From Escherichia coli (GTDB lineage Bacteria; Pseudomonadota; Gammaproteobacteria; Enterobacterales; Enterobacteriaceae): 64,000 bases of DNA. Shown in pieces: positions 48,001 to 57,000 of the stretch (the first letter of the stretch is position 1; each line of letters begins with the position of its first letter). The stretch lies in the NCBI RefSeq assembly GCF_003991155.1, contig NZ_CP031293.1. One strand, 5' to 3'. Made by a program: the position numbers.

Positions 48001-51000
48001 AAAGCGACGCAGGTCACCGTCGGTGATAATGCCCGCTAGCCCACCTTCTGCGTCTTCTACCATCACCATTCCCTGGCATCCGCTGGTGATACGTTGAATC
48101 ACGGTTTTAAATGACGCATCCAGCTGTACCGCAGGAACATCATGCAGCATGACATCAGCAACGCGGGTCAGCAGGCGACGACCTAATGAACCGCCCGGGT
48201 GATAGCGCGCAAAATCATTCGGCATAAATTTGCGTTGGTGGATCATGGCAATCGCCAGCGCATCGCCGATCGCCATCGTCAGCGTGGTAGACGTTGTTGG
48301 TGCAAGGTTATTCGGGCAGGTTTCATTCGCCATGTGGAGTTCCAGCACGGCATCAGCATTTTTCGCCAGCGTGGAATTTCCATTATTGGTCATGGCGATA
48401 ATTCGGTTGCCGAAATTTTTCAGTGAAGGAACTAGCTTGAGGATTTCATCCGTTTCACCGCTGGCAGAAATAAGGATCAGAAGATCGTAAGGCGTAATCA
48501 TGCCCAGATCGCCATGGAAAGCTTCTGCAGGATGAATAAAGAAACTAGGCGTACCCGTAGAGGCCAGCGTCGCTGACATTTTACGACCGACATGCCCTGA
48601 TTTACCCATTCCCGAAAGAATAACGTGCCCTTTACAGTTCATTATCAAATTAAGGACACGCTGGTACTGCCCGGAATCCAGTTGTTTAGACAAGTTTTGT
48701 AATGCTGCGCCTTGTTCTGCCAGAGTCTGGCGAACAGAGGTAATTAGATATGGATCGATAGTACTGCTCTGGTCATCAGGTAAATGTCTTTCAGACATAT
48801 CAGCTCCTTTGCACGGAAATAATGCCACAGTCACAACAAACCCGAACCCACTATAATTTATTTATGCTAAATCAATGGGTTGTAACAAAATTTTTAATGA
48901 ATATAAAACCATGGTCAGTCCATGCTTATATGCAGGACTTATCACCTTCTTATTAAGTCGCAATGTCTCATGGAGGTGCGAAGATGCTGCAATATTACAG
49001 GCGAGAAGGGGAACCAAATTTTGCCCACCTATTTAACACACCCCTACATTATGAACAAGGAATTTAGGATTTTTATCATTTATTAAAATGTTTCTCACTT
49101 GACTATTAAGACCAAAAACAATTTATCAATTGATTATTTCCTCGTAAAAAAAGAACGTATGACCATGTTATTAATAAATAAAACACGTAAATAATGGTGA
49201 TGTTGTTTTGTGATTAACTATTTAAAGCGGCATAATAAACAGGTTGACAATTTCTATGTAAAGAAGAGGAAAATAATAAAATTTTAGCGGTGACTATTGA
49301 ATGATATGATAGTTGTGATGTTGATTATTTCTGGTAATGAATGCGGAATTAAATCTGGCCGGATTGTATTTTTGCTATATCTGTTTTTCAGGAGATTATT
49401 ATTAAATAGAAAAATAACAGTGGTGATTATCTCCGGTTGAGCTGGAGTCACGTATGCCAGCGAGTGCTTTCTTCCGGGCCTTCCTTCACTTCAGATAAAG
49501 AGCCTATGGAAAAGAGGCAATCATCAGGCTCTTTTTGAGTCATATGCGCCGATAATCAACTGTCTTGAACGTAAAAATTATGGAGCAACATGATGCTACG
49601 ATTCATTTCACTCTTCGTTCTTTCTGAGCATTGCGTTCAGGATGGTCAGCAATTTACGCATACAGTCAACCAGCGCCACTTTTTTGGTTTTTCCGGCTGC
49701 TGACAGATGCATGTAAAATGCCTTTATCACCGGATTAAACCAGGTTACCACAAGCGCTGCCATGTGCAGGGCTGCTCTTGCCTCCGTACGCGCACTGGCG
49801 TCGTTCGGCCAGCAGATATGTGTGGGATTACAGGGATGTTATGTGAACTGAACTGTGTTTTGTTAACGGGGGATGTTTATTGATGATTCGGGAGTGTTTA
49901 AGACCTGATGGCGTTATGCTCCCAAGTTTATTTTATATAAAGATCCAAAAGCAAAAACCCGCCTTGTGGGCGGGTTCTTTAGAATAGTGGTGCCGGACTC
50001 GGAATCGAAGAATGCTTCTATCATGTTGATATTAGTTTATTTTGTTTGGTTTGGTGAAATATGTACCCTCTTTTGTACCCGCAGTCCCTTTTGATATCGA
50101 AAGGGAATCAAACTCGGGGTCAGGCTGAGAGCACAGAAGGAAAGTGCCTGGCTATTATATCGTTAATTCTGTCAATCAGCTCCAGCCTTTTGAAAGTGAT
50201 GTGTGCAGATCCCTTCTTAAAGTATTTAATGATGAACATCTCATCTTCATAGCGTCCTTTACCCTGAACGGACTGTATGTGGTCATCCAGATTAATGGTG
50301 ATATTCCCTCGGTTGTCGGGGATCGGTTTACCGCTGAGCAGATGCAACATTCTTTCCAGGTCAGCCAGGCGATCTGCCTGCATTCCACTGATAAGATGAA
50401 ATCCCCACTGGTCCCATCTCACCAGATTGTTGACGATAATTTTACTGCCAAATTTACAGGGTGAGTTGGTTTTGTAATCCCAGCTCAGCCCTTTGAAGAC
50501 GTTGATCACTCCCCGTTCAAACACTTCATCTTTGTTCTGGTGCAGTTGTTCAAATGTGCTCAGAATGTTCGCTTCGCTGATTTCCGGAAAATTATCATAT
50601 TCCAGTGACCTGGACCTGACTGAGGTGGAGCAGATAACGTCCGTATTCTCGTTGACCACTTCCGGACGGGAGACTGTGATTTCAGACATAATCGATATTC
50701 CTTTTTGCAGATAAATGAAAACGCCAGCCGTGTTCAGGCTGGCGTCAGTGGAATGAAGTCTGGTGAGTGAGATGATGAGTGAGACTCACCGGTTCTGGTG
50801 CTGAAGCTGCAGTTGGCGCAGGGTACGGATATCCTCTCTGGCCTGTTCGATACAGGGCAACAGTGCTGCTGAATCCGTTTTATCCTCATTGTTGTCAAAG
50901 ATAATTCCCGATTCGCAGTCGATATTGTCCTGCAGCCACGCAATCAGAATATCCAGTGCGGTTTCCGTGGTTAATGATTTCATGTTGTTCCTGGTTACCA

Positions 51001-54000: not shown

Positions 54001-57000
54001 AATGTCGGCGGTGGTGACGGGCTGATGTTCGTCACCATAACGGTAAGTCAGTGCCGCCTGTGCCAGCGCCTGGCGTGCCGGTGGCGGCAGAATCAGCGAC
54101 TGCATGGCATCACGCTTTTCCTCAATCCGGTCAAACACGCCCACCACCTCGTAAGCCCCTTCAATGACTCTGTCCACCACATTTCCCCGGTGCGGAACAC
54201 GCACTTCCCCCAGAGACTGACCACAGACGCAGCCGTTCTGGCAGACGAACCTGAAGTAACCCGGCAGCATCTGGTAGCTGGAGGTACCGTCATGAGAGTT
54301 GAGCAGAATGATTTCAGGGACATGTTCTCCGGTTATCTCTCCGTTACGGCGCAGGCGCAGCATGTGTTTTGTGTATCCCCGACGGCCCGGGTCGCGCACA
54401 CGGGTCTGGCAGGCAAAGAATGGCTGGAAGCCTTCCCGCTGCAGACTTTCCAGTACGGTGATGGTGGGGATGTACGTATAGTTCTGGCTTCGGGACGTGT
54501 GTTTATCTTCCCCGAAAATCCCCGGCACATGGTGCATCAGCTCTTCATGTGTCAGCGGACGGTCACGGCGTATCTGGTTTGCAGCATAACCAAAACGACT
54601 GGCTAATCGCATACTTTGCTCCTTATCGGTGGTTAAGATTTACTGGTGCAATAAATGAAAAAAGCCGCGTCTCCCGGAGAAGACGCGGCCTGATGGATGA
54701 AATCAATGAGGTTTATTGTCTGAGAAGCCCTCCACTGGCGAGCCACGCATTAAGCTGTTTTCCGGCATCAGCTTCAGAGTTCCGACTGCGTCAGCGTCGC
54801 TGACCTTCCGCGTTGCGGATAACCCGACGGAAATGCATTCCCGGGTCATCCTGGATAAACACATTGCGGTAAGCGGTTATGACAGCAACCGCCTGCCCGT
54901 ATGAGAAAGATCCTTCAGCCAGGACATACTCTGTGTGTAACCCGGCATATCTGGTTTCTCCTGATAAATAGCCTCTGCCATACGTTGTGGCAGAGGCTGA
55001 AGCATGAAACTGACTTCAGGGATCAGTTAACATTTTTTCCGGAAACGGTAATCAGCAGTGGATGGTAGTCCTGGGGATCGAAAACCGATAACGGCAGACT
55101 GACACGATGGCCGTTACTTTCTTCAGTTGCTTTAATGATTTCGGTTGTGGCGACATTTTCCACGCACTCCGTTTCCAGAAATGCGTCTGTGGTTCGCGTG
55201 GCATTACTGTCACCAAAGGCTTCCGTTTCCATTTTTCTGGTCACCAGCGTCTGACCATATTTGTCTTTGAGTTGCAGAGTGATGGTGAGGGGGCCAAATC
55301 CTTCATCGTTTCCGCCATTATCCAGCCGGAACTGGTAAGCACAAATATTTCCCGGGAGCCATATCGTATCTGTATTGCGTATACTGATGTAACGTTGATC
55401 CTGTGCCCGGAGTGGGGCAGACCACGTTAACCCCAGAATGAAGGCGGTAATCATGCAGGTTTTGAACAGGTGAATCATGGTATTTACCTCTCTGAGTCAT
55501 GACGATGACACTGACAAATCAGGTGATAAAACGTAAAAGGCGCAGAATAGCCGTTATGCCGGTAACTCCGGGGGTAATGTTTCTTCCAGTCGGTTAACCA
55601 TATTGCCGAGATGGGATGCATCATATTCCATGACGGGGCGTTGCCTGATGATACTGACCACCAGTGGTTTGATTAACATGTTGGTCGCGGCCCGTTGTTG
55701 TATACCGGCAGCGAAAATGATCTCCAGAGCATTCTGATCGATAACACGGGCCAGATTCGCGTTCAGATTTTCAATCTCATGTCCGGTCAGCAGGAAACTG
55801 CCGGCAAGCCATGTCACCTGCTCCTGAATCATTGCCAGAATTTTGACGCGATCTTCTTCAACCAGCGCTCCGGCAATTTTTCCTGATACAGCGGAGGCAA
55901 TCATTCCCCCCAGAACACCGCCAACCACACGCCCTGTCAGTGCACCAAATGGTCCCAGTGGACTGAACAATATCCCGCCCGCCACTGACCCGACAGCACC
56001 ACCTGCCACACAGGAAGATGCCACGGCAAGATTCCTGATGAACTGCGCACCGGAGATCCGTCCCCGCAACATTTTGATCATGTCAGGGCCGGTTGTGACA
56101 GCTACCAGTGCCAGAGATGTCACCAGCGTACCCTTCATCACTTTGTTCAGGGCACTGATATTTCCTGCACCGGTCCCCTTCTGAAGCGCCTGCCGGACAG
56201 TCGGGCTGGCCGTCGAAAAATCAATATGCTTCAGCATACCCTGAACAACACTGAGCCGGTGAAGTTGCTGGGTTGTGACGTAGACAGCCAGTGTGCGGGT
56301 GAAGGTTTTTCCTGCCTGGACAGCAGCTGTCTGCAGGGCAGCATCGCGATCGCCGGTGCTGAGCCAGAAGACCGATGCCGTCAGGGCAAAACTGATCCCT
56401 CCGGCCGCCAGACTGACAACCGAACCCTCGGCAATATCATAAGTGACCGATTCGATGGTCCCGAACCGGGTGATATTACGGGCCTGAGTATAAGTCAGAT
56501 GTCCCCGACGAATCAGCCGGGACGCTTCTGCGGGATCGGTTACACCGGGTACTTTACCTTCGCGGATCTTATTCCTCATGGTTTCAACAGCGCCGGCATA
56601 CTGATCACGGGGGACTTCCAGTTGCATGGGGCCATTATTTCCCATGTAACGATACTGTCCGTTTTGTCCGTCGAATGCCGCACCGACGCTACGGGCTGCA
56701 GTTGAACAATATTTCGTCTGGATTTCTGTTCCGCTGACCAGTCTGTCTGCTCCATTTCTGGCATTATTATCACCGAGGATCCGTGCGTTTTTCAGACGGA
56801 CTCTGTCGACAAATATGGTTTCCCCGTTCAGCGGCAAACCCATGTCCCTGCCCTCCGGAAGCAAACATTTTCTCATTTGTACTCCAGGTTTCCGGCAGTT
56901 TCATGAGAATCAGACCATTCGCCGTTGCATCGGAAATAAAGCTGTTGTAAGGGCGTTCATAAATTTCCTGACACAGTGTTTCTGTTTCGCGACAAAGAGA

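Follow-up and report, generated by a model that had tools for sequence, protein, structure and literature searches.

In a 64,000-nucleotide stretch of the Escherichia coli contig NZ_CP031293.1 (assembly GCF_003991155.1), referred to below as the window, we analyzed a block of nine consecutive minus-strand open reading frames (ORFs) at positions 50120-54612. A preliminary description had proposed it to be a CP4-like module with a CbtA/CbeA toxin-antitoxin pair and a KlcA/RadC/DUF932 gene set. All nine ORFs lay where that description had placed them, and Pfam named eight of them (all except the DUF957 ORF) with E-values from 1e-21 to 1e-62. Read along the minus strand, from high to low coordinates, the block begins with a DUF932 protein (53791-54612, 273 amino acids [aa], Pfam 7.9e-52, 75% identity to K-12 YfjQ), followed by an ArdB/KlcA-family anti-restriction protein (53251-53736, 161 aa, PF03230 2.4e-37), a RadC-like JAB (JAMM) protein (52759-53235, 158 aa, Pfam RadC 8.3e-45), a DUF987 protein (52475-52696, 73 aa, Pfam 7.5e-39), the CbeA (YeeU) antitoxin (51944-52312, 122 aa, Pfam 2.3e-52), and the CbtA (YeeV) toxin (51480-51854, 124 aa, Pfam 9.6e-62). 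The three small ORFs expected to trail the toxin turned out to encode a DUF5983 protein (50995-51483, 162 aa, Pfam DUF5983_N 1.8e-28 and DUF5983 1.7e-21), a DUF957 protein (50786-50983, 65 aa, named from the NCBI annotation of a matching genome copy), and a DUF4942 protein (50120-50689, 189 aa, Pfam 2e-54, covering profile positions 32-189 only). Beyond them, on the same strand, lies an attR remnant (49988-50009) with 22 of the last 23 nucleotides (nt) of tRNA-Phe.

In matching genomes, the NCBI product names agree with our Pfam-based names for the module and, together with the Pfam domains and the PDB matches, bear out both the CP4-like identity and the KlcA/RadC/DUF932 set. Two gene starts deserve a comment. 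In the NCBI annotation, the start of the RadC-like gene is at 53235 (158 aa), with the ORF open back to 53250, and that of the DUF957 gene is at 50983 (65 aa) rather than 51028. The longer 80-aa ORF (50786-51028) had no match in the copy of Pfam used for the scan; its 65-aa core, which NCBI calls “DUF957 domain-containing protein” in the genome with the matching copy, is 92% identical to the O157 and O104 copies and starts 11 nt past the DUF5983 stop. The DUF932, DUF987, DUF5983, DUF957, and DUF4942 proteins have no known function. PADLOC returned no defence-system match across ten module proteins, and the module contained no RNA family according to Rfam scans that covered positions 48000-64000 and the entire window.

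The att remnant of the preliminary description proved to be real. The sequence TTCGATTCCGAGTCCGGCACCA at 49988-50009, located 110 nt past the DUF4942 stop, corresponds to the 3′ terminus of tRNA-Phe lacking one G, and shuffled sequences gave 0 expected matches. A search with the intact 23-mer of the tRNA-Phe 3′ end produced no att match because of this 1-nt deletion, and the deleted form matched. A second tRNA-Phe repeat was searched for beyond the kps genes and was not found. From position 35000 to its end, the window differs from strain Rb-3 by a single mismatch, located within 53000-53999, and the arrangement in Rb-3 could be followed beyond the window. It runs from the gsp genes for type II secretion through the group 2 capsule cluster kps, whose last gene is kpsF, and an IS110 fragment to the att remnant; the capsule genes are situated immediately outside the attR scar of the island. 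After the att remnant come the genes for DUF4942, DUF957, DUF5983, CbtA, CbeA, DUF987, the JAB protein, the anti-restriction protein, and DUF932; beyond DUF932 follow DUF905, IrmA, a frameshifted yeeR-like gene, Ag43, and a GTPase, and then cdiA, pap, and other cargo. Outside the window, at a distance of ca. 77 kb from the att remnant, Rb-3 has a tyrosine integrase next to tRNA-Phe (pheV) with the orientation of the remnant, and for this reason we regard the module as the distal end of an island at pheV. The locus combines a repeat of the tRNA 3′ end, an integrase by the tRNA gene (in Rb-3), and the order anti-restriction/RadC/DUF987/antitoxin/toxin that characterize CP4-type islands. A region of 6.8 kb around the module matched many human isolates of extra-intestinal pathogenic E. 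coli (ExPEC) at ca. 100%, and among 5,426 complete E. coli genomes, 5,370 contained parts of it; the number of places per genome had a median of 3 and a maximum of 18.

The 161-aa anti-restriction protein has the PF03230 domain and matches both solved structures of its family, ArdB (PDB 2wj9, which we take to be from E. coli CFT073) over the full length with E = 1e-99 and KlcA (PDB 2kmg) with E = 1.1e-20; its identity to K-12 LfgA/YfjX is 70%. ArdB/KlcA proteins form an anti-restriction family of plasmids and islands that blocks type I restriction in vivo, and restriction relief has been shown for KlcA and for the protein of PDB entry 2wj9, which is nearly identical to this one (PMC2836571). 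The RadC-like protein scored 148.9 bits against TIGR00608 (cut-off, 133.85) and shares 99% identity with YeeS and 78% with LfgB/YfjY. Its metal-site motif, read from the translation as HNHPSGEVTPSKAD (H-x-H-x7-S-x2-D), is intact. LfgB, its paralogue in CP4-57, has been reported to be a protease that degrades the antitoxin MqsA (PMC10846083).

The toxin-antitoxin pair also stood up to the homology searches, which confirmed that the two ORFs are similar to YeeV/YeeU-type proteins. The cbeA gene (PF06154) has a GTG start with a GAGG Shine-Dalgarno sequence and lies immediately upstream of cbtA on the same strand, with an 89-nt spacer; its product is 93% identical to K-12 CbeA and matches the YeeU structure (PDB 2h28) with E = 8e-77. 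CbtA covers the whole PF06755 profile (positions 1-112 of 112) and aligns without gaps to the K-12 protein at 88% identity. The toxin gene was checked for inactivating mutations and none was found: it is full length, and F65, on which FtsZ binding depends (PMC5624674), is retained. Position 15 (codon at 51810-51812) is Cys, compared with Arg in K-12. The R15C change in K-12 CbtA abolishes MreB binding and leaves the toxicity via FtsZ, and the natural C15 toxins YpjF and YkfI still block elongation (PMC5624674). The same residue was present in all three of the other natural CbtA alleles compared (O157, O104, and a chicken isolate), so that among these alleles the Arg15 of K-12 is the exception. 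We rejected C15 as an inactivating mutation given that it is common in natural alleles and that K-12 CbtA with R15C is still toxic.

Downstream, the stop codon of cbtA and the start of the 162-aa DUF5983 ORF overlap as ATGA, as described before and as can be seen in ...GAGAAACGATGAAACTT..., and this overlap is kept in all six loci compared (the window, K-12, and four others). The DUF5983 protein is the full-length form of K-12 YeeW, with 71% identity to the 64-aa protein of that strain. An exhaustive profile search indicated a small family, with 213 representatives, in which the C-terminal domain also occurs as a stand-alone protein or behind a different N terminus and in which H74 and D79 are nearly invariant. 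The AlphaFold2 (AF2) model of this domain has a pLDDT above 90, and no fold relative was found for it in the PDB. Distant members adjoin mobile-element genes, either DUF932 together with NikA and a relaxase or, elsewhere, an ArdC fragment. By tblastn, the core domain was detected on 2,660 plasmid records, 2,179 of them conjugative, versus 66 records with CbtA. These plasmid records were mostly from Klebsiella, often with the domain directly after DUF932, by an SLT gene and traM, and with no CbtA; such is the arrangement of a Klebsiella IncF plasmid, and in a Pantoea plasmid the DUF5983 gene is near ssb and psiB. Because it is common on plasmids without CbtA and beside DUF932/SLT/traM or ssb/psiB, we regard the DUF5983 core domain as a leading-region gene independent of the toxin, with stand-alone examples at L014 6105-7288, L015 5905-6282, and L009 852-2684.

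These data bear on the suggestion, made in the preliminary description, that the coupled ORF could be functionally tied to the toxin. The ATGA overlap would make DUF5983 translation follow that of cbtA; this coupling implies that the two are co-expressed but demonstrates no part of DUF5983 in the toxin system. A stronger version would have a three-part system in which DUF5983 modulates or neutralizes CbtA, for instance by direct binding (CbeA has been reported not to bind it). The universal overlap in the compared loci would fit such a system, and the association itself is already known from the literature: in a large survey, a DUF5983 gene followed CbtA in every sequence type but ST11 (PMC10790755), and a 2026 preprint found DUF5983 consistently adjoining cbtA/cbeA. 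It would also fit that the N-terminal DUF5983_N domain is rare on plasmids, where the matches span 80% or more of the protein in only 33 of the 2,660 records. However, toxicity and neutralization have been shown experimentally for the YpjF and YkfI loci, and the YpjF/YfjZ and YkfI/YafW pairs work without a DUF5983 gene (PMC5371832), while the CbtA/CbeA pair of K-12 was characterized with only the 64-aa YeeW stub present. Furthermore, in locus L007 (E. coli isolate 30345_1#247), the cbtA gene (5256-5630) has an internal stop and cbeA, DUF5983, and DUF957 are intact, and the plasmid records with the core domain vastly outnumber those with CbtA. Comparative evidence gave no support to the functional tie, and we consider a three-part system improbable. 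We offer with the same reserve, as a speculation that would probably fail, a scenario in which a plasmid leading-region domain gained a CbtA-specific N-terminal domain, the ATGA coupling fixed its ratio to the toxin, and the resulting protein tunes or binds CbtA.

As regards transcription, terminator-like hairpins were detected on the minus strand at three places: at 54662-54691, between DUF905 and DUF932 (13 pairs, 8 of them G-C, followed by a T-run), at 50720-50746, after DUF957, and at 49953-49979, directly after the att remnant. The first probably marks the upstream boundary of a transcription unit. Since such hairpins flank the segment from DUF932 to DUF957, the sequence suggests that these genes form one unit, with DUF4942 transcribed separately. 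The paralogous yfjXY-ypjJ-yfjZF genes of CP4-57 have been reported as one operon (PMC10846083).

The module also shows signs of decay. DUF4942 has 189 aa here versus 280 to 281 aa in the O157 and O104 copies, and a BLASTP comparison with the 280-aa form of L005 identified it as that form with an in-frame deletion of about residues 26 to 117. The DUF4942 family is similar to a portion of phage DNA methyltransferases (phrog_6263). In the 162-nt spacer between DUF987 and cbeA there is a 37-codon ORF (52362-52475, minus strand) that starts on the DUF987 stop codon (TGATG). We rejected it as a separate new gene, as a spacer alignment of six loci identified it as the 3′ stub of a gene of ca. 214 aa. 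This gene persists, frameshifted, in L007 (4105-4748), where it is annotated as “antitoxin of toxin-antitoxin stability system,” and the K-12 spacer keeps only its 5′ stub; the reconstructed 214-aa protein had no Pfam match. One could argue from the loss of about 91 internal residues in DUF4942, the reduction of the spacer gene to a stub, the deletion in attR, and, in the neighborhood, the frameshifted yeeR-like gene and the short DUF905 (43 aa versus about 77 aa in other loci) that the whole module is a dead remnant of a cryptic element, with no activity operating in this strain. Against this, the DUF932, ArdB, RadC, DUF987, CbeA, CbtA, DUF5983, and DUF957 genes are full length with their motifs intact, the block matches many independent isolates at ca. 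100%, and the K-12 paralogues, residing in equally “cryptic” elements, are expressed and have phenotypes (PMC5371832, PMC10846083). A completely inactive module seems to us hardly credible.

Taking everything together, the whole block is very probably the conserved distal (“right-end”) gene set of a CP4-44-type tRNA-integrated island, located at pheV and carrying establishment and maintenance genes. Islands of this class integrate at a tRNA gene via a P4-family integrase, and the block would represent the last part of the pheV pathogenicity island of ExPEC, ending at the degraded attR. Upon entry of the DNA into a new cell, the ArdB/KlcA protein would relieve type I restriction, and the RadC-like JAMM protein may act as a metalloprotease. 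CbtA would block cell division, and probably elongation too, by binding FtsZ and MreB, and CbeA would counteract it, both forming a predicted type IV toxin-antitoxin pair. In the literature of 2012 (Masuda), the mechanism of CbeA is said to be filament bundling rather than binding of the toxin. The data directly show the gene content and order, the similarities, the coupling, the att scar, and the distribution in the population; all of these activities (restriction relief, protease, toxin, and antitoxin) we infer from characterized homologues.

Several points weigh against this interpretation. For this particular copy, the activities are predictions from sequence. A simple promoter scan of the module gave no minus-strand sigma-70-like match, so the operon structure is likewise something that we infer. 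With C15 on a CbtA-type backbone, this allele may act on FtsZ only, since K-12 CbtA loses MreB binding with R15C. Lastly, the DUF4942 deletion, the remnant of the spacer gene, and the 1-nt deletion in attR suggest that the island is no longer mobile, in which case the “establishment” functions may be relics. An origin of the block from a phage, rather than from a plasmid or an establishment region like those of integrative and conjugative elements, is improbable. In its favor are the “cryptic prophage” label of CP4-44, CP4-57, and CP4-6 in the K-12 annotation and the match of six of the nine module proteins to PHROG families; against it stand the absence of genes for phage structure or lysis around the module, in both the window and Rb-3, the abundance of DUF932 plus DUF5983 partners in the leading regions of conjugative plasmids, by ssb/psiB or SLT/traM, and the assignment of ArdB/KlcA to a plasmid and island anti-restriction family (PMC2836571).

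The surroundings of the pheV island end contain other recognizable features. Between the att remnant and kpsF, outside the island boundary, there is a C-terminal fragment of an IS110-family transposase (49608-49790, minus strand). A JUMPstart element (34815-34853, plus strand, 58.5 bits) is located upstream of the capsule export genes, and the region of ca. 30 to 35% GC after it (about 34000-41000) corresponds to the section of the kps group 2 cluster that is specific to the serotype. Further away, at 14829-15050 (minus strand), the C0719 small RNA gave a strong Rfam match (297 bits). On the island side, all on the minus strand, the genes for DUF905 (54791-54922) and IrmA, an interleukin receptor mimic (55023-55478, Pfam 9.8e-38), are found between DUF932 and the yeeR-like gene. 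The latter, of about 2.5 kb, consists of two ORFs, 440 and 435 aa long, that overlap (55554-58077); in the matching genome, it carries a frameshift according to NCBI, and intact 2,517-nt versions are annotated in L006 and L007. Beyond it is the Ag43 gene (58192-61314), with an Rfam IS102 RNA match (61333-61569, 74 bits) directly upstream; the equivalent place in K-12, upstream of flu, is taken by the small RNA gene isrC.

The module is already known as an ordinary, annotated E. coli island-end block, and its value for discovery is small, as annotations of it exist for thousands of genomes, close homologues of the toxin-antitoxin pair and of the anti-restriction protein have been characterized, and the gene series has already been tabulated for the Shigella SRL island (PMC6980539). 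The remaining points of interest are the role of DUF5983 and the target of the C15 toxin, which could refine a much-studied toxin family. In islands, the DUF5983 gene always comes coupled to cbtA, but its core domain is a very common, toxin-independent gene of the leading regions of conjugative plasmids, with no recognizable fold. As to the toxin, C15 is the majority state among natural CbtA alleles, and it is the very change by which the K-12 protein loses its binding to MreB.

Among known systems, the 161-aa protein resembles ArdB (2wj9) and the IncP KlcA (2kmg) in sequence, with no difference of note. Plasmid leading regions, of the F type and related ones, share with the window the association of DUF932 with a DUF5983 C-domain gene, but they carry the C domain only (about 90 to 125 aa, with 33 to 40% identity), and those plasmids lack CbtA/CbeA. 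For the SRL island of Shigella flexneri, whose right end bears the matching ORF labels L0007-L0010, YfjQ, YfjX/KlcA, YeeS, YeeT, YeeU, and YeeV have been tabulated, and the series continues with YeeW/L0008, L0009 (DUF957), L0010 (DUF4942), and an IS110-like transposase (PMC6980539); the comparison is by tabulated ORF series only, and host, integration site, and cargo are different. The preliminary description had invoked the order of CP4-57/CP4-44, and that gene order is seen here, but no single K-12 element carries all of it. The paralogues in CP4-57 and CP4-6 have 59 to 82% identity to the window copy. CP4-57, with lfgA(yfjX)-lfgB(yfjY)-ypjJ-yfjZ-ypjF, has the same order from the anti-restriction protein to the toxin and a DUF932 gene (yfjQ) upstream, but its identities are 59 to 78%, it lacks DUF5983, DUF957, and DUF4942, and it has genes inserted between yfjQ and lfgA. 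The same three genes are missing from CP4-6. The closest relative in K-12 is CP4-44 (flu-yeeR-yeeS-yeeT-cbeA-cbtA-yeeW), which shares with the window the order from RadC to YeeW, the ATGA overlap of cbtA and yeeW, and the upstream Ag43 and IsrC/IS102 RNA, with identities of 99% (YeeS), 99% (YeeT), 93% (CbeA), and 88% (CbtA). Unlike the window, it lacks DUF932, the anti-restriction gene, IrmA, DUF905, DUF957, and DUF4942, and its yeeW is a 64-aa stub. The window copy resides at pheV instead of at the K-12 CP4-44 site, with C15 in place of the R15 of K-12 CbtA, and is a CP4-44-type module more complete than any K-12 element.

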